DNA of 64,000 bases, taken from Nitrospirales bacterium. GTDB taxonomy: Bacteria; Nitrospirota; Nitrospiria; Nitrospirales; UBA8639. Location: the NCBI GenBank assembly GCA_963555755.3, contig OY820905.2, forward strand, positions 1,760,001 to 1,824,000, read 5' to 3'. The translations under genes and the position numbers were made by a program. How positions within the stretch are numbered: position 1 is the stretch's first letter; the number at the start of each line of letters is the position of its first letter. Under the pieces are notes generated by a model that made no database searches, had not been told where the DNA came from, and was given only the letters and a program-made list of their open reading frames with translations. Of the stretch, positions 23,813 to 36,510 are shown piece by piece.

Positions 23813-26800
23813 CTATTCCGTGGACTTCATCAATTCGACATCGAGACCTAAACTCTGGAGTTCCTTCACCAACACATTGAAAGACTCCGGCAATCCAGGT
23901 TCCAAGAAATTTTCCCCTTTGACAATCGCTTCATACATGCGCGACCGTCCAGGCACGTCATCGGACTTGACGGTGAGAAATTCCTGCAACGTCGAAGCGG
24001 CTCCATAGGCTTGCAAGGCCCACACTTCCATTTCCCCTAAGCGCTGTCCACCAAACTGGGCTTTCCCACCCAACGGTTGCTGCGTCACAAGAGAGTACGG
24101 ACCAATGGACCGAGCATGAATTTTATCATCAACCAAGTGATGCAACTTCATCATGTACACATATCCAACTGTCACAGGACTTTTGAACGGTTCACCCGTA
24201 CGACCATCAAGCACGACGGATTGCCCAGATTGAGATAAGCCGGCTTTTGTCAAGAGGTCCTTGACTTCCAGCTCAGTAGCTCCTTCAAAGACCGGGCTAG
24301 CCACATGAATGCCCAAGGCTTTGGCCGCCCACCCCAGATGGGTTTCCAAAATTTGTCCCACATTCATCCGCGAAGGTACCCCAAGCGGATTCAAGACAAT
24401 TTCCAACGGCGTGCCGTCCGGCAAATAGGGCATGTCTTCTTCAGGAAGAATGCGCGAGACCACCCCTTTATTGCCATGCCGACCGGCCATTTTATCTCCG
24501 ACGGAAATCTTGCGCTTAATCGCCAAATACACCTTGACCAACTTGATGACGCCAGGCGGCAATTCATCGCCACGCCGAAGTCGCCCAACCTTTTCATCAT
24601 AATAGGTTTGGAGGATTTCGATTTGATCTTTGGCGGCATGCTCAATATCCTCGAGTTTTTTCTGTTCCTCGGAATCACTAAGAAGGACTCGCCGAACATT
24701 ATCGTCGGATAATTTCCGCAAGACCTCTGCGGTGATCTTCCCCTTCCTCTTTAAAATGACCTCGCCACTGTCATGGTCCATAAGATCACGGCCCACGACT
24801 TGGCCGAGCAGAAGCTTACGCAGTCGCTTGGCCCGCTCTTCCTCAATAATACGAAGCTCCTCTTGATAGTTGCGTTCAATCTTGACTCGATCTTGCGATT
24901 CAATGTCTTTGGACCGCTCATCCTTATCAAGGCCTTTCCGAGAAAAGATTTTGACATCGACAACGATTCCCTCGATTCCAGGAGGAACTTGAAGCGAGGT
25001 ATCTTTTACATCCCCGGCTTTCTCGCCAAAAATCGCTCGCAACAATTTCTCTTCCGGAGTCAGCTGCGTCTCGCCTTTCGGCGTCACCTTGCCAACCAGG
25101 ATATCTCCAGGCTTCACCTCAGCCCCAATACGCACGATGCCACTTTCATCAAGATTCCGCAGAGCCTCTTCACCCAGATTGGGAATATCTCGGGTGATCT
25201 CTTCTTTCCCTAGCTTGGTATCGCGCGCCTCAACTTCAAACTCTTCAATATGAATCGACGTGAAGATATCGTCTCGCACCAGTTTCTCGCTGAGCAGAAT
25301 CGCGTCCTCAAAATTGTACCCACCCCACGGCATAAATCCGACAAGGATATTTTTACCAAGAGCCAATTCTCCTCGATCAATGGAGGGGCCATCTGCCAAC
25401 ACTTGCCCTTTTTTGACCGGCTGACCAACCTGGACCACCGGCGTTTGGGTCACACAAGTGTTTTGGTTCGTACGTTGAAACTTGACCAGGTCATAGGTAT
25501 CCAAAAATCGTTTACTCTTCCCCTTATCATTATCTTTTTTGCCCAGTTCCGTTCTCACCACGATTCGACGAGCATCGACGCTTTCGACAATTCCGTCACG
25601 GCGCGCTTGCTCAACATATCCGGAGTCTCTCGCAACCACAGCCTCCATCCCTGTCCCAACGAGCGGGGCTTCACTTTGAAGCAACGGAACGGCTTGTCGC
25701 TGCATATTTGAGCCCATCAAGGCGCGGTTCGCGTCATCATGCTCGAGAAAGGGAATCAACGCGGTAGCCACACTGACCACTTGCTTGGGCGACACGTCGA
25801 CGTAATCGATTTTATCAGGATCCGCCGTCACAAACTCGCCTGCCGACCGTGCCGTCACCGATTCCCCCACCAATTTTCCACTCGCATCCATTTTCGAGTT
25901 GGCCTGTGCGATAATAAACCGTTCTCCCTCGAGAGGGGAAAGAAATTCCACTTCATTGACAACTCGGCCTTTTCGTACTTTGCGAAACGGCGCCTCAATA
26001 AATCCGAATTCATTGATTCGGGCATACGTCGCCAATGAAGTGATCAAACCGATGTTCGGACCTTCCGGCGTTTCAATCGGACAAATCCGACTATAATGGG
26101 AAGGATGGACGTCACGAACCTCAAACCCCGCACGCTCTCGAGTCAGACCGCCCGGACCCAACGCCGACAACCGACGCTTGTGTGTGATTTCAGCTAAGGG
26201 ATTGGTTTGATCCATAAACTGAGATAATTGGCTCCCGGCAAAAAACTCCTTGATGGCTGCCACAATCGGCTTGGCATTAATTAAATCATGGGGTAACACG
26301 GTTTCCATGTCTAACAGATTCATCCGCTCCTTGATGCTCCGCTCCATCCGAGCCAACCCCAAGCGAATCTGATTTTCCAACAACTCACCAACTGATCGGA
26401 CGCGTCGATTTCCCAAATGATCGATGTCATCCACATCGCCTTTGCCCATTTTCAATTCGACTAAGCCGCGTACCACTTCAATAACATCCTGAGCCGTCAG
26501 GACACGCAGTTCAAGCGAATGGTCCAAGGAAAACCGACTATTCATTTTCAGACGTCCCACCGGAGAGAGGTCGTATCGCTTAGGATTCAAAAACAGGTTT
26601 TCAAAGAGGAGCTTCGCCGAATCGACGGACGGCATTTCCCCTGGCCGAAGGCGCTTGTAAATTTCAACCCAAGCCTCTTCTTTTGACGTGGTCCGCTCGG
26701 CCTCAAGAGTATCTAGAATCACAGGGGTGGTGGCCGTACTATCCAGGTAGATGATTTTGAAGCTCTCAACCCCACTCTCTAAAATTTTTTCGACAGTCGG

Positions 26801-27781
26801 CAGTGCAAACCGTTGATTCTTTTCCAGGATCACCTCACCACTTTTTGGAGCAACCAACTCCGTTAACACCGCACGGCCCACCAATTCATCCGGCTTGACG
26901 GGGATTTCCTTTATTCCCGCGGCACGAAGTTTGGACATGACCCCTTTGGTTAAGCGATTGCCTTCCCGAACCAACGGTTCCTTCGAACCTTTTTCGAACA
27001 CGTCGAGAGAGGTTCGGTGTCCCATATGCAACTCAAGATCAAGTTTACGCATGAACTGCCCATTGACGATGCGAATTTCTTCAACCGGATAATACATTTT
27101 CAGCAATTCATCCGTGGAAAGGCCGAAAGCCTTCAACAAGATCGTCGCCGGCATCTTTCGCCGCCGATCAATTCTGACATACAAAATATCGCGAGCATCG
27201 AATTCAAAATCCAACCACGAACCACGGTAAGGAATAATTCGAGCGGAAAACAGAATCTTCCCACTCGAATGCGTCCGACCTTTATCATGACTAAAGGATG
27301 CACCAGGCGAACGATGCAATTGGCTCACCACCACTCGCTCCGTCCCATTGATGATAAAAGTCCCGCGATCCGTCATCAGCGGGAGCTCCCCGACGTACAC
27401 CTCCTGCTCACGAACATCGAGAACTTTGCCTTTGACGCTTTTATCCTGGCTATCAAACACGACCAAACGAATACGAAGTTTTAAAGGTGCGGCAAAGGTC
27501 ATACCCTGCTCCAAACACTCGCGCACATCATACTTGGGTGTCCCCAACGAATAATTGGTAAACTCAAGAATAGCCGTATTGTTATAATCAGAAATGGGAA
27601 ACACGCTCATTAATGCCGCTTGCAAGCCCTTTTCAGCTCGGCGTTCAGCGTCAGCATCTTTTTGCAAAAAAGCTTCGTATGATCGTTTTTGCACTTCGAC
27701 CAGATCCGGGATTTCAATAGTCGAAGGAATTTTTGAAAAATCCATTCGCTTGATAAGTCCCGGCAATGTTGGTTGCGGCAT
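23813..27781 (-). CDS. rpoB: RNA polymerase beta subunit
   Basis: [38 protein letters not shown]; start at ATG 27781 after AAGGAG. Confidence 0.99.
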
Positions 27782-27866
27782 AGTCGGCTCCTTCGACATC
27801 ATCAATACAGGTTAGACAGCCCGTCCTTGGCAATGAGGAACAATCCTCGTCCCTCATCTTCCTTAT

Positions 27867-28259
27867 TTATTTGACTTCTACCGTCGCACCCACATCAGTC
27901 AGTTTCTTCTTTATGACTTCGGACTCATCCTTGTCCACATCCTCTTTGACGGCCTTTGGCACACCCTCCACTAAATCTTTGGCTTCCTTCAAGCCCAACC
28001 CCGTAATCTCTCGCACCACTTTAATCGCTTGGATTTTCTTGTCAGCTGCAAAACCAGTCAAAATCACGTCGAAAGAATCCTGCTCTTCAACGACTGGCGC
28101 AGCGGCCCCTGGTGCTGCTGCTACCGCCACCGGTGCTGCCGCAGTCACTCCAAACTTATCCTCGAAACCTTTGACTAACTCCGAAAGCTCCAATACCGTC
28201 ATGCCTGCCACGGCACTGAGAATGTCCTCTTTTGAAAATTTTGTTTCTGTCGCTGCCAT
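27867..28259 (-). CDS. rplL: 50S ribosomal protein L7/L12 from an internal start (130 aa)
   Basis: [48 protein letters not shown] 8 nt before ATG 28259. Confidence 0.9.
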
Positions 28260-28793
28260 TGAACCGTCTCCTTTCTTTTTTTCCTGTATTGCCGCCAGCA
28301 CAGCCACGAACCCACGAAGAATGCCTTGCATCACGCCAACCATCCCTCGCAGAGGGCCTTGCATGGCGGAAAGCAACATGGACAGCAAGACCTCCTTGGA
28401 CGGTAAATCCGCTGCGGCAATGAGCTGTGCCGGATCGAGAGTGTTTCCTTCTAATACGCCGCCTCGCCATACAATTTTCTCACCACACTTTTCTGCCTTA
28501 ATGAAGTCACGTAAAATTTTGGTGGGCAGAACGGGATCATCATAGCCAATCACCACGGCAACCTGCCCCTTGAACAACGTCTTCACCGACAACAGTGATG
28601 TCCCTTCAACCGCGCGCATCGCGAGCGAATTTTTCACCACTTTGAGTTCAGCGTTGACCCCACGAAGTTGGTGTCGCAACTGCGTCAATTGATTAACCGG
28701 CATTCCGCCACATTCCGTCACGACAGCCAATGTGGCTTTAGAGAATTTTTCGTGCAGATCAGCGATGGCCGTCACTTTATGTTCCTTGTTCAT
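27867..28793 (-). CDS. rplJ: In-frame fusion of 50S protein L10 and L7/L12 (308 aa)
   Basis: First 178 aa are L10 ([17 protein letters not shown]); no stop before the L12 sequence. Confidence 0.93.
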
Positions 28794-28815
28794 TCAGCAC
28801 TCCTTCTCGACTCCC

Positions 28816-29517
28816 TCACTCGACATTCCGGGTAATCGTTGAACATTCAAGTGGGATACCAGGCCCCATGGTGCTACACATGGTCGCGCCCTTCACATAC
28901 TTCCCTTTACTGGAAGAAGGTTTGGCCTTCATAAGAGAACCAAAAACCGTCTGTGCATTTTCCGAGATTTTGGTGCCTGAGAAAGACGCCTTTCCGATTG
29001 GCACATGCACGATCCCGGCCTTATCCACCTTGTATTCCACGCGCCCTTTGCGAATTTCATCAATCGCCTTGGCCACCTCGAAAGTCACGGTGCCTGTCTT
29101 GGGGTTGGGCATCAACCCTCTTGGACCAAGCACTTTTCCCAATTTACCCACGGAAGCCATAAGATCAGGAGTGGCAATGGCTTTATCAAAATCCAGCCAA
29201 CCTCCTTTTATTTTTTCCAACAGATCATCAGAGCCAACATAATCTGCTCCAGCCTGGCGAGCCTCCTGCTCTTTTTCACCTTTGGCAAAGACCACAATCC
29301 TCACCTTCTTCCCTGTCCCGTGAGGAAGGAGGGTTGTTCCACGGACCATTTGATCGGCTCGTTTAGGATCGACACCTAACCGAACCACCAACTCAACCGT
29401 TTCATCAAATTTCGCCGTGGCAATTTGCTTGACCAGCTCACTAGCCTCCTCCAAGTTATACAACTTCGATTCAACCTTGGACACAGCATGTTGTAATTTC
29501 TTTCCCACTGCCTTCAC
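28816..29517 (-). CDS. rplA: 50S ribosomal protein L1
   Basis: [24 protein letters not shown]. Confidence 0.99.
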
Positions 29518-29536
29518 TCCTCTACAATCTCTAAAA

Positions 29537-29962
29537 TTAGTCCGTGACCGTTATCCCCATGCTCCGAGCGGTGCCTTCAATAATTTTCATGGCACCCTCA
29601 ATATTAATTGCATTCAAATCTGTCATTTTTTGTTTTGAAATTTCCGTCAATTGGACCCGAGAAATGTTCCCGACCTTATCTTTCTGCGGCACGCCAGACC
29701 CTTTAATGATCCCTGCGGCTTTCTTTAACAAATCCGTGGCCGGAGGAGTCTTGGTGATAAAGGTGAAACTCCGATCTTTATAGACCGAAATCACAACAGG
29801 AATGATACTGCCTTCTTGTTTCTGGGTCTTCGCATTAAATTGCTTGCAAAACTCCATAATATTGAGACCATGTTGCCCCAATGACGGACCGACAGGGGGC
29901 GCAGGGTTTGCCTTCCCTGCGGGAATTTGCAATTTAATTTGAGTGATGACCTCCTTCGCCAT
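29537..29962 (-). CDS. rplK: 50S ribosomal protein L11
   Basis: [19 protein letters not shown]. Confidence 0.99.
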
Positions 29963-30058
29963 AGCGTGTTCTCTCTCCTACCAGAAGGTTAACAATGCTT
30001 CACAGCCTCGAAATGGCTTTCATGAATTCCGCTACACAATGTGAAATGTACCGATGGA

Positions 30059-30601
30059 TCATCCACGCTCAATTTGGGAAAAAGCTAATTCCACAGGAGT
30101 TGATCGACCAAAGATGCTCACCAAGGCCTTCACTCGACTATGATCCGAATCCACTTCATCCACCATCCCATTGAACCCCATAAACGGTCCATCAATAATT
30201 CGTACGTTATCGCCCTTAGAAAAGATGATCTGTTCACGAGGAGCTGTCGCCCCGGATTCGATTTGCTTGAGAAGAGATTCAGCCTCTTCATCAGTTAAGG
30301 GAATCGGTCGGGTCCCTCCCCCCACAAATCCCGTGACCTTCGGAGTGTCCTTGATCATCATCATTGTTTCATCTGTGACAGGAGCTTCCAATTCGATCAA
30401 GACATACCCCGGGAAAAACTTTCGCTTGGATGCCCTCCGCTTTCCATCCTTGATTTCTATCACGTCTTCAGTCGGAACTAATACCTGACCCAGCTCTTCC
30501 TGAAGGCCCATTTGAGTCGCACGCTCCCCTAGGGATGCCCTGACCCGCCCTTCATAACCCGCATAGGTGTGAATGACGTACCAACTTTTGCTTTTGGCCA
30601 T
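30059..30601 (-). CDS. nusG: Transcription factor NusG
   Basis: WYVIHTYAGYE, FFPGYVLI, TPKVTGFVG, SIFGRSTPVEL. Confidence 0.99.
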   Translation of the reverse strand: MAKSKSWYVIHTYAGYEGRVRASLGERATQMGLQEELGQVLVPTEDVIEIKDGKRRASKRKFFPGYVLIELEAPVTDETMMMIKDTPKVTGFVGGGTRPIPLTDEEAESLLKQIESGATAPREQIIFSKGDNVRIIDGPFMGFNGMVDEVDSDHSRVKALVSIFGRSTPVELAFSQIERG

Positions 30602-30624
30602 CAAAATACCTCAAATTCTTTTTT

Positions 30625-30816
30625 TTAAAGTATGCGGCTCACAAGCCACACTAAAATAGAATCGATCATGGAAAGGTATAAGGACATGATTACACAAAAG
30701 ACCACCACAACCGAGGTCGACCCAATGGTTTCTTCACGGGTTGGGAAGGACACCTTTTTCAATTCAGACTTCACTTCTGATAAAAATTCAGTAATTCTGC
30801 CCCACAATTTACCCAC
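30625..30816 (-). CDS. secE: Preprotein translocase SecE
   Basis: EVKSELKKVSFPTREE plus one TM helix, upstream of nusG. Confidence 0.96.
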   Translation of the reverse strand: MGKLWGRITEFLSEVKSELKKVSFPTREETIGSTSVVVVFCVIMSLYLSMIDSILVWLVSRIL

Positions 30817-30901
30817 GATGCATTCCTTCTCTTTTGTCCATGCCCCAAAACTTCAAATCTTTCCAATTCTTGGCCATGTACTGGAAACTCAAACTACAGT
30901 T

Positions 30902-30977
30902 TGGCAGGGGCACCAGGACTCGAACCCGGACCATCGGTTTTGGAGACCGACATGCTAGCCATTGACACCATGCCCCT
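30902..30977 (-). tRNA. tRNA-Trp(CCA)
   Basis: 76 nt cloverleaf, anticodon CCA, GGTTCGAG T-loop, encoded CCA end. Confidence 0.97.
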
Positions 30978-31061
30978 TCTCAAGACCCATGAGACGTAAG
31001 GGGTAAAACGGAAGGTGAATAAAAATCTATCGATTCTCGCTTCACCTTTTACTCTTGACCC

Positions 31062-31211
31062 TTATTTCACCTCTTTATGAGGGACATGCTTCCTGCAGAA
31101 CCGACAATACTTTTTCATCTCCAGACGATCCGGATCATTTTTTTTATTTTTCATCGTCGAATAATTTCGCCGCTTACAATCACCACAAGCTAAAGTAATA
31201 ATGACCCGCAT
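31062..31211 (-). CDS. rpmG: 50S ribosomal protein L33, Zn-binding (not in ORF track)
   Basis: Manual translation [49 protein letters not shown]. Confidence 0.97.
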
Positions 31212-31250
31212 GGTCCCCTACCTTTCGAGAAATATCAAACAACTCCGAAT

Positions 31251-31403
31251 CGTAACGACTCAGGTCACTTCCCTTTTGCCTCATGACGGCGTTCCTGTGG
31301 TGCTCGAATCCTCATCCTTTACGAGGACCCCTCAGGACCACCAGGCAGTTCCGCGCTCCTCGCGCCTTGTCCTGAGCCAAAATTGAAGCAACCTGCGAGT
31401 TAC
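31251..31403. repeat. MITE-like element, family A copy 3
   Basis: Same core as 3394 and 8101; between tuf and rpmG. Confidence 0.85.
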
Positions 31404-31415
31404 TCCAAATCTGTA

Positions 31416-32621
31416 TTACCCTAAGATTTCCGTGACCACACCGGCGCCCACCGTGCGGCCACCTTCCCGCACCGCAAACCGCACACCCTTCTCCATCGCA
31501 ATCGGCGCAATCAATTCCCCCGTAAACGTCGTGTTATCGCCCGGCATCACCATCTCGACCCCTTCGGCCAAGTTCACAATGCCCGTCACGTCGGTCGTCC
31601 GAAAGTAAAACTGGGGACGATACCCATTGAAAAACGGCGTGTGCCGCCCACCTTCATCCTTGTTTAACACGTACACTTCGGCTTTGAACTTCGTATGCGG
31701 GGTAATACTCTTCGGCTTCGCCAGCACCATCCCCCGCTCCACTTCGTCCTTCTTCGTCCCCCGCAACAGGGCCCCAATGTTATCCCCGGCTTGCCCATCA
31801 TCCAACACTTTCCGAAACATCTCCACCCCTGTCACCGTCGTGGTCCGCGTATCGGCTAATCCGACAATTTCAATTTCATCCCCCACCTTGACCTTCCCAC
31901 GTTCGACCCGCCCGGTCACCACGGTGCCCCGACCGCTGATCGTAAATACATCTTCAATGGGCATCAGGAAGGGTTTGTCAATGGCCCGCTCTGGCATCGG
32001 AATATACGAATCAACGGCTTCCAAGAGCTTCAGAATCGAGGGCACGCCAATGTCGCTGGTGTCCCCTTCGAGCGCTTTGATCGCCGAGCCGGTTATAATG
32101 GGAATGTCATCCCCTGGGAATTGATACTTCGACAACAACTCGCGCACTTCGAGTTCGACTAACTCCAACAACTCAGGGTCTTCCACTTTGTCGGCTTTAT
32201 TCAAGAACACGACGATGTACGGCACCCCAACTTGCCGGGCCAGCAGAATATGCTCGCGCGTTTGCGGCATCGGCCCATCCGCGGCGGAAACCACCAAAAT
32301 CGCCCCATCCATTTGCGCAGCACCCGTAATCATATTCTTGACATAGTCGGCATGCCCGGGGCAGTCCACATGCGCGTAGTGCCGATTCTCGGTCTCATAT
32401 TCCACATGGGAGATCGCGATGGTTAAGATCTTCGTCGGATCCCGTCGGCCTTGGGATTCACTGGCTTTGGCCACTTGATCATAGGAGACATAAGTGGCCA
32501 ACCCCTTATCCCCCATCACCTTCGTCAAGGCCGAGGTGAGGGTCGTCTTCCCATGGTCCACATGCCCAATCGTCCCCACATTCAAATGCGGCTTCTTCCG
32601 ATCAAATTTCGCCTTCGCCAT
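31416..32621 (-). CDS. tuf: Elongation factor Tu, tRNA-operon copy
   Basis: Protein identical to 15041-16246. Confidence 0.99.
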
Positions 32622-32727
32622 CTGCCCCTCCTCAGGAATCCCACCCAGAACCGACACATCTTGGTCGCTGGCTGAGAGCTAAACGTGAAAATTTACATGT
32701 ATTTCAATTAGCTGGTTCGAATCAAAC

Positions 32728-32803
32728 TGGAGCCCACGACGCGGATCGAACGCGTGACCTCGTCCTTACCAAGGACGTGCTCTGCCAACTGAGCTACATG
32801 GGC
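32728..32803 (-). tRNA. tRNA-Thr(GGT)
   Basis: 76 nt cloverleaf, anticodon GGT, CCA end. Confidence 0.97.
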
Positions 32804-32899
32804 CTTGATTTCGTAAAACGGGAAACGAGCGGAATGCAGATTCTGTCGTCCCAATTCTTCACCCTTCACGTGTACCGTTTTACGCCTCACGCTTCTCAC

Positions 32900-32975
<76 letters not shown>

Positions 32976-33043
32976 TACGCCCTACATGCCTATTAAAATC
33001 CAACGAACGAATTCTCCCTGCCCTTCCCTCGGCAACAAAAAAA

Positions 33044-33128
33044 TGGTGGGCAGGCAAGGATTCGAACCTTGGAAGCCGACGGCAGCAGATTTACAGTCTG
33101 CCCCCTTTGTCCACTCGGGTACCTGCCC
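33044..33128 (-). tRNA. tRNA-Tyr(GTA)
   Basis: 85 nt with long variable arm, anticodon GTA, CCA end. Confidence 0.97.
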
Positions 33129-33315
33129 ATTTTACATCTACACTTTTTGGCAGTCTGCCCTTAAGTCATCAAAGATTAAGGGAAAGATTCAATCGAACGG
33201 GTTGGATGCAATAAGGCAAAACCCTTCTCCCCCCTGAATTTCTAACAGGTAAGAACTAGGGCGCCTTAAAAATTTTCACTTAAATCGCCTAAAGGTCGAT
33301 CACAACAAACGGCAT

Positions 33316-33344
33316 ATTATAAAGACAGAGTGGAAAATCGTCAA
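33316..33344 (-). promoter_or_regulatory. Putative sigma70 promoter of the tRNA-tuf operon
   Basis: TTGACG-17 nt-TATAAT on minus strand. Confidence 0.75.
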
Positions 33345-33566
33345 GATATTTGGATGGAATCAAAATTGATTATTTTTTGAGGCTCAGATCCAAACATTTT
33401 GGGGACAATTTTGCCGGGGCCATGAATCCCTAAACTCAACATGTAGGCAAGTGGTATCGGCCTTTGTATGACGGGAGAAAGGGCTGGACCTCAAGCCTTT
33501 TTGTTTGATATGAAGTTATAAGAGGTATCTTAGGGTTCCCGAAAGTAATGGCAAGGATAGAAATTA

Positions 33567-34055
33567 ATGATTTTTCGACAGAAAATACTGATGCTTTTCC
33601 TTCTGATCACAGTTGTGTTCACGGGATCGTTGTCGGTTTTTGCCACACCACCTGCCCCGCCACCGAAACTTAACCCGGGACTCGCGACCATTCAGACACC
33701 CGACGGATTTACGATATTTGCCGAATTGGCCATTACACCAGACCAACGAACGAAGGGATTGATGTATCGAACCCGTCTGGCACCCGACCGAGGAATGCTC
33801 TTTACCTTCACAGAACCAGGCTATTGGACCTTCTGGATGAAAAACACCAAGATGGCTCTGGATATCCTATGGCTCGATGAAAAGGGCACCATTGTGCATA
33901 TTCAACATGCCGCCCCAATTTGTACACGGCAAGATAATCTCTGCCCACGGTACCGGTCCATAATCCCCGCAGTGTCAGTTTTAGAACTGGGACCAGGACG
34001 AGCGGAAACACTCAACTTAACAAAAGGCAAGACACTCAAGATTGAGTTACCTTAG
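33567..34055 (+). CDS. DUF192 family exported protein
   Basis: Signal peptide, GLMYR...GMLF, FWMKNT..LDI, VLEL..G. Confidence 0.9.
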   Translation: MIFRQKILMLFLLITVVFTGSLSVFATPPAPPPKLNPGLATIQTPDGFTIFAELAITPDQRTKGLMYRTRLAPDRGMLFTFTEPGYWTFWMKNTKMALDILWLDEKGTIVHIQHAAPICTRQDNLCPRYRSIIPAVSVLELGPGRAETLNLTKGKTLKIELP

Positions 34056-34074
34056 GATCCTTGCAAAAGGCTTT

Positions 34075-34274
34075 AAATTCGAAACCCGAATATCGAAATC
34101 CGAAACAAATCCGAAATCCCAAACTCGAATGCCTCAAACGGATCACTGAACTCTTATACGGCAGGCAAAACCCTTCATTCAATCTTCAAGGTCATCCCAA
34201 CAGTTTATCTATGTTTGGTTTTTAGTTTAGTCATTTGAATTTGTTTCGGATTTCGAGATTCGAGTTTCGGATTT
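34075..34274. repeat. Long hairpin of short CGAAA/TTTCG units, family C copy 1
   Basis: AAATTCGAAACCCGAATATCGAAATCCGAAACAAAT inverted to ATTTGTTTCGGATTTCGAGATTCGAGTTTCGGATTT; between convergent genes; related to 61722. Confidence 0.75.
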
Positions 34275-34299
34275 GGTCCCAACTTTTCAGATAGGCATT

Positions 34300-36510
34300 C
34301 TACCGTGAACCTTCCCATACTCGGATTCGTTTCGCAGAGATCACACCTTCGATTCGTCCAACCGCTTCCAAGGTTCGGTCAAGATGTAAGGTATTCGACA
34401 CCTCAATGACAAAATCCAAGACAGCTTTTTGATCTTCTCGTGTCGTAATTTCTGCTCGACTGATGTTAGCCTGAGATAAAGAAATGGCGGAAGATACCTT
34501 GGCTAACACCCCCGGTTGATCAATCGTCAACACGCAGACTTTGACTGAATGATTGCCTTCGATTTTCCCATCCCATTCAACCTCAACCAAACGGTCCTTT
34601 TCATAGTCCAAGGCTTGAAGGTTGGGACAGCCTACAGAGTGAATGGTGAGACCACTCCCACGCGTAATGTATCCCATGATGGGATCCCCCGGAACAGGGC
34701 TACAGCATTTCGAGAGCTGCATCATGACATCTCGACCGCCCATGATTTTTACAGCTTTGATAGGCCTTGGGGCCCGCATGTGCGGAACCACCCCTTCCGC
34801 GTCATCCTGGGCAACTTCTTCCCGGGCAGCAGGATCAAGAAATTGGTTGACGACCGTAGCGGCGGACAGGCGACCATAGCCGATCATTCTCATCATTTCA
34901 TCGAGTGATTCATATCCAGCGTCAGCTGCAACCTGTACGAGCTGATCGGATTTAAGCAGTTGAGCTGCCGGAAGGTTATGCCGTCGAAATTCACGTTCTA
35001 AAAGACGCCACCCTAATTCGAGCCCGCGTTTTTGCTCCTCAACTTTGAGCCAATGCTTGATTTTGGCTCTGGCTCGCGAGGTCTGAACAAATGTCAACCA
35101 TTCCCGCTGAGGGGTTTGAGAAGGCGACTTCAGAATGTGAACCGTATCGCCGCTATTGAGCTTGTGTCGCAAGGGAACAATTTTCCCATTGACCTTTGCG
35201 CCAATACAATGATCGCCGATTTCCGTATGAATGGAATAGGCCAAATCCAACGGGGTGGCGCCAAGAGGCAACTCCTTGACCTCACCTTTTGGGGTAAAGG
35301 CAAACACCACATCATGAAAAACATCCAAATGAAACAAGTCGAGTTTCACGGAATCCATGAACTGCTGGTTGTCTGACAAATCTCGATGCCATTCGACAAA
35401 TTGCCGCAACCAGCTAAACACTTTTTCATCTCGATCACCGACCTTGGCCTGCTCCTTGTACCGCCAATGCGCGGCCACGCCATATTCCGCGAGACGATGC
35501 ATGTCTTCCGTTCGAATTTGAAATTCAATATGCTCCCCTTGTGGACCCAGCACCGTCGTATGGAGCGACTGATATAAATTGGTTCGCGGAGTGGCAATGT
35601 AGTCTTTAAACCGACCATGCACGGGCGGCCACAGGGAATGGATCAATCCCAACACCACGTAACAATTCATTTTGGTATCCGAGACGACTCGAATGGCCGC
35701 GAGGTCATAGACCTCCTCAAAGGTGATCTCTTGTCGTTCCATCTTTTGATGGATGGAGTATAAATGTTTAGGCCTACCCTCCACCGCACCCGTCAGACCC
35801 GCGGCAGCCAAGGCGTCTCGTGTCGCATGAATAATGGATTCGACATATTCCTCCCGCTCTTCATCACGTTTCGCCACTCGCAACTTGAGCAAAGAATAGG
35901 CTTCCGGCTTCGAATATTGAAAACATAAATCCTCGAGTTCCTGCTGCATCCAACTCATACCGAGACGATTAGCCAACGGGGCATAAATTTCCAGGGTTTC
36001 TTGAGCAATCTGTTTTTGCTTGCTCTCGGACATGTGCTCGAGCGTTCTCATGTTATGCAAACGGTCCGCCAACTTAATAAACACCACCCGGATATCATCG
36101 GCCATGGACAGCAGCATTTTTCGAAAATTCTCAGCTTGCTTTTCTTCATAGGTCTCAAAAGGAAGCTGTCCGATTTTCGTGACACCTTCCACCAGGTGAG
36201 TCACTTCGTTTCCAAATTGCGCTTGCAACTCTTCTTGGGTCGCCAGGGTATCCTCTAGCGTGTCGTGGAGAAGCGCCGCGACGATGGCAGTCTCATCTAG
36301 CTTGAGAAAAGTCAGGATTCCCGCCACGGCCAAAGGATGTTGGAGATAGGGTTCCCCGGAACGCCGGGTTTGCCCTTCATGCGCCTTCGCGGAAAAATCA
36401 TACGCGCGTCGGATCACAGCCTCATCCGCTTCGGGATGATAGCTATGAACTTGTTCAACAAGCTGGTCGATCTCTGTGACAATCGCTAAGGACATGTGAC
36501 TCTCATACAC
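34300..36510 (-). CDS. rel: Bifunctional (p)ppGpp synthetase/hydrolase Rel
   Basis: Intact HDTLED hydrolase motif, RFKD and YQSLH synthetase motifs, TGS, ZFD and ACT domains. Confidence 0.96.
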   Translation of the reverse strand: MYESHMSLAIVTEIDQLVEQVHSYHPEADEAVIRRAYDFSAKAHEGQTRRSGEPYLQHPLAVAGILTFLKLDETAIVAALLHDTLEDTLATQEELQAQFGNEVTHLVEGVTKIGQLPFETYEEKQAENFRKMLLSMADDIRVVFIKLADRLHNMRTLEHMSESKQKQIAQETLEIYAPLANRLGMSWMQQELEDLCFQYSKPEAYSLLKLRVAKRDEEREEYVESIIHATRDALAAAGLTGAVEGRPKHLYSIHQKMERQEITFEEVYDLAAIRVVSDTKMNCYVVLGLIHSLWPPVHGRFKDYIATPRTNLYQSLHTTVLGPQGEHIEFQIRTEDMHRLAEYGVAAHWRYKEQAKVGDRDEKVFSWLRQFVEWHRDLSDNQQFMDSVKLDLFHLDVFHDVVFAFTPKGEVKELPLGATPLDLAYSIHTEIGDHCIGAKVNGKIVPLRHKLNSGDTVHILKSPSQTPQREWLTFVQTSRARAKIKHWLKVEEQKRGLELGWRLLEREFRRHNLPAAQLLKSDQLVQVAADAGYESLDEMMRMIGYGRLSAATVVNQFLDPAAREEVAQDDAEGVVPHMRAPRPIKAVKIMGGRDVMMQLSKCCSPVPGDPIMGYITRGSGLTIHSVGCPNLQALDYEKDRLVEVEWDGKIEGNHSVKVCVLTIDQPGVLAKVSSAISLSQANISRAEITTREDQKAVLDFVIEVSNTLHLDRTLEAVGRIEGVISAKRIRVWEGSR

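Follow-up and report, generated by a model that had tools for sequence, protein, structure and literature searches.

We found that the genes for ribosomal proteins L10 (rplJ) and L7/L12 (rplL) are joined in one reading frame in a Nitrospirales bacterium, and that this fused gene is real and clade-wide. In the usual description of the bacterial stalk, one L10 loosely holds two or three L12 dimers whose subunits come from a separate gene. Our data indicate that the fused frame, which contains a second, conserved Shine-Dalgarno (SD) sequence and ATG, is likely to yield both an L10–L12 fusion and free L7/L12, with one fusion and approximately five free copies per stalk.

One reading frame for L10 and L7/L12

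The window is the whole 64,000-nucleotide stretch of DNA analysed here, and translation of its minus strand from 28793 to 27867 gives 308 codons without a stop (Table 1). Within the encoded protein, residues 4–173 match the NCBIfam L10 equivalog NF000955 (154.9 bits against a cut-off of 85) and residues 185–308 match the L7/L12 equivalog TIGR00855 (155.7 bits against a cut-off of 84.4), with the Pfam domains in the order L10 (PF00466), L12_N (PF16320) and L12 (PF00542). An earlier note on this DNA had described L10 as running in frame through a linker into a complete L12, which is what the single frame and the two profile scores bear out. The N-terminal dimerisation domain, Ala/Pro hinge and C-terminal domain of L12 are all present by profiles and model, and the L10 half departs from the uL10 norm in that its chain goes on past the helix into L12.

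Table 1. Features of the fused rplJ–rplL gene and its two starts, in window coordinates
Feature	Positions	Strand	Basis
rplJ–rplL fused ORF, 308 aa (L10–L7/L12)	27867..28793	−	translation and family profiles
Shine-Dalgarno AGAAGGAG of the upstream (rplJ) start	28800..28807	−	6 nt 5' of the ATG at 28793; −9.2 kcal/mol with the genome's anti-SD
L10 moiety, residues 1–178: rRNA-binding domain (1–128) and C-terminal helix	28260..28793	−	profile, model
L10 C-terminal helix, residues 133–175, three predicted L12-dimer binding segments	28269..28397	−	T. maritima alignment; one long helix in model
Internal Shine-Dalgarno AGAAAGGAG, in-frame codons for part of K-K-G-D	28268..28276	−	−11.7 kcal/mol
Internal ATG (Met179), predicted start of free L7/L12	28257..28259	−	ATG in 84/84 junctions
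L7/L12 moiety, 130 aa; predicted in two forms, at the C-terminal end of the fusion and free	27867..28259	−	profiles, PDB matches
L12 N-terminal dimerisation helices, residues 188–214	28152..28232	−	Pfam, model
L12 C-terminal factor-binding domain, residues 241–308, after the Ala/Pro hinge	27870..28073	−	Pfam, model

The fused frame sits between rplA and rpoB, in the order rplK-rplA-rplJ-rplL-rpoB-rpoC. The gap between rplA and rplJ is 22 nt (window 28794–28815) and is shorter than 50 nt in 53 of the 73 relatives measured, and no Rfam match to an L10 leader was found in positions 16000–34500. Since the gap is short and no match was found there, this cluster may lack the usual L10(L12)n feedback leader or have it at another place. 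Four tRNA genes are located around tuf, rpmG and secE (window 30905–33128), as is usual for such a cluster. When both halves were used as tblastn queries, no second rplL or rplJ was found in the genome, which is 99.4% complete and comprises two contigs (the only other match had an E value of 0.1). Where a canonical genome has a separate rplL, this genome has one frame, the sole copy of both L10 and L7/L12.

According to the earlier note, the L10 tail seems to keep three amphipathic binding segments, LLSMLLSAM (residues 136–144), PLRGMVGVM (147–155) and ILRGFVAVL (158–166), and indeed it is collinear with the three-dimer tail of Thermotoga maritima L10: 65 residues align without gaps to residues 115–179 of 1ZAV chain A, up to the last residue. 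The structures 1ZAV, 1ZAW and 1ZAX hold 18 L12 N-terminal chains per three L10 chains. L10 of Bacillus subtilis and Escherichia coli aligns only to about position 158–159. The stalk of T. maritima and Thermus thermophilus is given as L10/L12(6) in passages of PMC1635324, and passages of the same paper and of PMC13001810 put the L12 requirement at four to six copies per L10. An AlphaFold model of the fusion contains the L10 domain, a single helix (residues 133–175), a low-confidence linker (173–189), the L12 helices (188–214), a disordered hinge and the C-terminal domain. The model is modest (66 sequences, pLDDT 61, pTM 0.40) and does not give the position of the tethered domain; the linker between the L10 helix and the L12 dimerisation helices spans approximately 13–15 residues, at low confidence.

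We infer both protein products, their stoichiometry and the position of the tethered domain as follows. Initiation at the first start would produce the L10–L12 fusion, and initiation at the internal start would produce free L7/L12 from the same mRNA. The fusion would bind 23S rRNA via its L10 domain, and its C-terminal helix would offer three predicted dimer sites. Since L12 N-terminal domains are dimeric, the simplest assembly would be one fusion with five free L12: the outermost site would hold the tethered N-terminal domain together with one free L12, and the two remaining sites would take four further free copies, giving six heads of which one would be unable to leave. Alternatively, the tethered L12 may stand outside the three sites as an additional arm with a further free L12 as its partner, which would give seven or eight heads and resemble archaeal aP0. 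The three L10 segments are all intact and would offer room for six free L12, and the archaeal stalk reaches seven sites through the aP0 tail and three aP1 dimers, according to passages of PMC7768734. However, the high local concentration of the tethered domain at the outermost site should allow it to compete there, and a short linker of conserved length suits docking close by; we consider an extra arm unlikely.

A predicted internal start within the linker

The internal ribosome-binding site claimed in the earlier note is exactly where it was placed: GAAAGGAG lies at 28275–28268, 8 nt 5' of the ATG at 28259–28257. Pairing with the 3' end of the genome's single 16S rRNA extends to AGAAAGGAG (28276–28268), and the predicted energy (−11.7 versus −9.2 kcal/mol at the rplJ start) is the second strongest among the 11 starts scored in the cluster. 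For comparison across relatives, 107 loci were collected, of which 105 were parsed; 91 of these had frames of more than 280 codons, and 84 distinct junctions remained after removal of duplicates and of a fusion from another order (G381, described below). The set excludes one truncated locus, one locus missed by the motif, 12 outgroup loci without the fusion and two copies from G006. Because of shared descent among the 84 junctions, counts over them are not independent trials.

We found that the junction codon is ATG in 84 of 84 distinct junctions. The residue that follows is small in every case (S 38, A 26, P 19, V 1), compared to 232 of 510 residues after other Met; S, A, P or V at the second position is compatible with removal of the initiator Met. 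The Gly four codons 5' of the ATG is encoded by GGA or GGG in all 77 junctions that have it, compared to 951 of 1898 other Gly codons (50%), and all four codons are in use at each of the 15 further conserved Gly columns. In the other seven junctions, a GGAG arises from different codons. Predicted SD pairing lies between −9.3 and −13.3 kcal/mol in 84 of 84 junctions; the median is −11.7, compared to −4.6 for the 501 other Met codons scored in frame. The rplJ SD is weaker than the internal one in 76 of 82 cases. Across the 84 junctions, the least folded 40-nt windows of the gene are at the junction ATG, although this weak folding is partly a consequence of Lys and Glu codons. Compared to the rplJ start, folding is weaker at the internal start in 63 of 82 cases over positions −40 to +30, but in only 34 of 82 over positions −20 to +20. 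Codon optimisation is 0.035±0.027 in the L12 half versus −0.029±0.029 in the L10 half, a difference of the expected sign that lies within error; rplL is reported to be more codon-optimised than rplJ in six species in passages of PMC13001810. Since the constraint at third codon positions must have a source other than the protein, the SD is kept beyond what the protein needs. The invariant ATG and the synonymous-site constraint on the SD agree with the earlier prediction of a ribosome-binding site conserved at the junction in Nitrospirota, and constitute strong sequence evidence for a working internal start.

Two further observations concern starts within the gene. In three loci of one family (L068, L069 and L071 of f4), the SD-coded linker contains a second in-frame ATG (K-G-M-G-E-M), and only the second ATG has normal SD spacing. 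A scan for a promoter inside rplJ that could drive an mRNA of rplL alone returned two consensus sites, compared to 1.3±1.1 expected, both within the L12 part, and no terminator.

We asked where the linker came from. In f11, the unfused family with the closest unfused L12 match, AAAGGAG or ACAAGGAG is found a few bases 5' of a free rplL, including AGAAAGGAG-type sites, and the L12 bears the same short N-terminal extension as the fused L12. Because f11 has the same sites and extension before a free rplL, the linker can be read as an old ribosome-binding site recast as codons. A single origin in the ancestor of the order is likely, and it would have removed the rplJ stop and spacer and turned the rplL ribosome-binding site into a K-G-E-G-D linker.

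The distance from the L10 start to the junction Met is 177, 178 or 180 codons in 82 of the 84 junctions (the other two were not parsed), and where the length differs the frame is preserved. In the window gene, a single-nucleotide change could turn any of seven of the nine linker codons into a stop, which would give back an ordinary L10 without harming the L12 start. In the five linker codons outside the SD core, we counted 147 parsimony changes, among which approximately seven stops were expected if tolerated and none was seen; the test is rough (uniform mutation is assumed, the purine richness of the start region disfavours T, and Met anchoring across indels inflates the count). These data suggest that the fusion is selected or entrenched.

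The same linker bears on the reading that internal initiation does supply free L12 but a protease cuts the fusion at the linker, which would leave an ordinary L10(L12)6 stalk with no lasting tether. Cleavage would fit the low-confidence coil at residues 173–189 of the model and the completeness of both halves, but the conserved linker residues are those that the SD dictates, no separate cleavage motif is evident, and the residue before the junction Met varies (D 33, E 29, S 12 and six others in the 84 junctions). Furthermore, a stop codon would restore the ordinary state equally well, yet none is found among the linker changes, and we regard cleavage as quite improbable. There is very little to recommend the idea that only the fusion is made, with one L12 per ribosome or with fusions pairing mutually, since a single ORF annotated in databases as one protein would agree with it but the invariant ATG, the synonymous constraint on the SD and the three-site tail would be left unexplained. 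Equally faint is the prospect that ribosomes undergo programmed frameshifting in the A-rich linker, so that part of the L10 chains terminate early and unfused L10 is made as well: A AAA AAG, a slippage motif as in dnaX, does lie in −1 slippage phase at window 28277–28283 (minus strand), directly before the internal SD, but such a heptamer is present in only 7 of the 84 junctions. The preferred reading remains a fusion accompanied by free L7/L12 from the internal start.

Distribution of the fusion

With the whole protein as query, a full-length, stop-free match was found in 38 of 41 genomes drawn from the bacterium itself and its genus, family and order. The three exceptions are G006, which is broken inside L10 with the junction continuous, G028, whose gene lies on two contigs and has an intact junction, and G001, a 59% complete genome that gave no match. 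Within a phylum sample of 401 genomes, 127 of the 132 genomes of the order (own included) gave a match, and 125 of these 127 matches were full length without a stop, the other two being split by contig ends. The earlier note expected a stop-free junction in relatives, which holds across the order, and took separate genes in all relatives as the contrary case, which is not what the near genomes contain. Outside the order, 23 of 24 single-piece matches contain stops, among the matches listed (there are 422 further). A class sample of 401 genomes gave no stops in the best 150 of 445 matches. In other orders of the class, the L12 frame is 129–182 codons long in 26 of the 26 genomes picked (i.e., L12 is separate), and the DNA of these genomes shows L10 stops and spacers, with three tails not parsed cleanly.

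We searched again 20 order-level genomes with two matches or partial ones. Thirteen of the 20 matched, with no internal stops and with the split ones ending at contig ends; the other seven gave no match, and five of those tested were without rplA as well, which makes them uninformative about the fusion. Five genomes of genus g17 (G387, G230, G567, G569 and G576; 98–99% complete, one of them a single contig) have no match for rplJL or rplA, which probably reflects missing or unread sequence. In a FastTree phylogeny of 67 loci (L10, L12, part of L1 and part of RpoB), the 33 fused clade members form one group with a support of 0.999. A genome from another order of the class, G381, also carries an L10–L12 fusion (L077, G381:C122:783–1706), with a different junction that has its own SD and ATG. 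The tree puts it with unfused orders at weak local support (0.19 for the node shared with its neighbour and 0.93 for the next node up), and no fused relative was found among the matches listed for 25 other genomes; this fusion from a single genome could be a private change.

The earlier note had proposed mapping reads over 28259–28290, and contigs of seven of the eight sequencing runs (X5, X6, X11, X12, X10, X16 and X18; X17 does not reach the junction) cross 28257–28290 with no stop, indel or changed letter. X5 and X6 may be the window's own source, and X11 and X12 are diverged strains from other studies. Four of the seven crossing runs are RNA or guessed-RNA libraries that may include DNA, and RNA contigs give no level, strand or ends. 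An assembly or sequencing error or a private stop-removing mutation, possible for single-member clusters elsewhere and for G381 but favoured by nothing in this clade, has a negligible chance and is ruled out for Nitrospirales by the seven concordant runs and by conservation to approximately 53% identity across four families.

We next considered other lineages. The best 150 matches in 1.84 billion cluster representatives contain 21 full-length L10–L12 proteins with 35–46% identity, besides one Nitrospirales-like entry. In most of the 21, inspection by eye of the protein letters alone finds G-G, E-G or G-E two to four residues ahead of the M, V or L with which L12 begins, a pattern that an SD at this position would encode. 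Ten of the 21 were looked up: four are multi-member clusters whose names point to Armatimonadota and Chloroflexota/Dehalococcoidia, and six are singleton clusters, in which the stop may have been lost privately. Among the matches listed for 251 genomes from the phylum to which a Dehalococcoidia locus belongs, at least four are full length and stop-free. In the three of these that were read (L168, L172 and L175), the stop-free junction has an ATG or GTG preceded by an SD of −10.8 to −14.2 kcal/mol. Because fused clusters occur elsewhere and the Chloroflexota junctions have an SD and ATG or GTG, the fusion probably arose several times with the start kept. A separate observation is that six proteins of 593–1056 aa (P0134, P0148, P0151, P0154, P0159 and P0241) have five to eight L12 C-terminal domain matches, apparently tandem L12-head repeats.

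On balance, we lean slightly towards a wider reading in which the order Nitrospirales and, independently, many other lineages hold one bL12 covalently on uL10 and obtain the rest from a nested start. This would be a repeated bacterial route to a P0-like stalk with one non-exchangeable head, kept by selection, in which the ratio of fusion to free protein would be set by elongating versus internally initiating ribosomes.

Comparison with known systems

The earlier note guessed that annotations of relatives already show the fusion, and database entries of the same architecture do exist. ESM Atlas clusters are named 'Multifunctional fusion protein family protein', the two best of them (137 and 61 members) being mostly Nitrospirota where the phylum is known, and NCBI NKB80675.1 is named only 50S ribosomal protein L7/L12. 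These entries carry automatic labels and are silent on internal initiation and stalk composition. In the annotation of such genomes one 'L7/L12' stands alone, L10 is missing, and the predicted proteome has no free L12, which has consequences for marker-gene sets and for searches of proteomic data. Stalk stoichiometry was reportedly surveyed by Davydov et al. in 2013. In the literature searched, judged by titles and abstract openings, no study of a natural L10–L12 fusion was found; a mention may exist in subscription journals or in the supplements of Nitrospira genome and proteome papers. The text passages and 12 of 13 supplements of Yutin et al. 2012 (PMC3353972) hold no mention of fusions, and the Nitrospirae genome shown in those passages is Thermodesulfovibrio.

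Whether L12 must exchange on and off the ribosome is a standing question. A natural, clade-wide covalent stalk in a nitrifying order would be a ready test of the need for L12 exchange, of the number of mobile heads and of how an unequal subunit ratio is obtained from one mRNA, and a repeated origin would parallel the archaeal and eukaryotic P0 design.

The canonical bacterial stalk is uL10(bL12)4 (E. coli, B. subtilis) or uL10(bL12)6 (T. maritima, PDB 1ZAV/1ZAW/1ZAX; T. thermophilus), with L10 and L12 made from separate rplJ and rplL. The fused gene has in common with it the domains, the gene order, an SD and ATG belonging to L12 and a three-segment tail as in T. maritima. It differs in that the gene is fused without a stop or spacer, one L12 is predicted to be covalent on L10, and there is no Rfam L10 leader. 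Among the 53 PDB sequences that match the fusion profile, no chain spans both halves.

In archaeal aP0(aP1)6 and eukaryotic P0(P1-P2)2 stalks, as in the predicted fusion, uL10 itself carries a factor-binding C-terminal region. Passages of PMC7768734 describe the aP0 C-terminal region as homologous to aP1 and as adding a seventh factor-binding site, and describe aP1, P1 and P2 as little similar to bL12. Given this low similarity, the parallel with P0 would be one of convergence and analogy. Unlike P0-type stalks, a whole bL12 with its dimerisation domain is attached here, and the free copies are predicted to come from the same ORF rather than from a separate gene. No P0-type long uL10 was recognised: PRK04019-type L10 models of approximately 340 positions match only residues 3–95, far below their cut-offs, and the appended part is bacterial bL12.

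In-frame internal initiation yields two isoforms per gene in infB (IF2 alpha and beta), clpB and cheA. The fused gene shares with these one ORF, two starts and nested products, here predicted from the DNA. In contrast to infB, clpB and cheA, the short product would be a core ribosomal protein needed in several-fold excess, and the arrangement would have arisen by gene joining.
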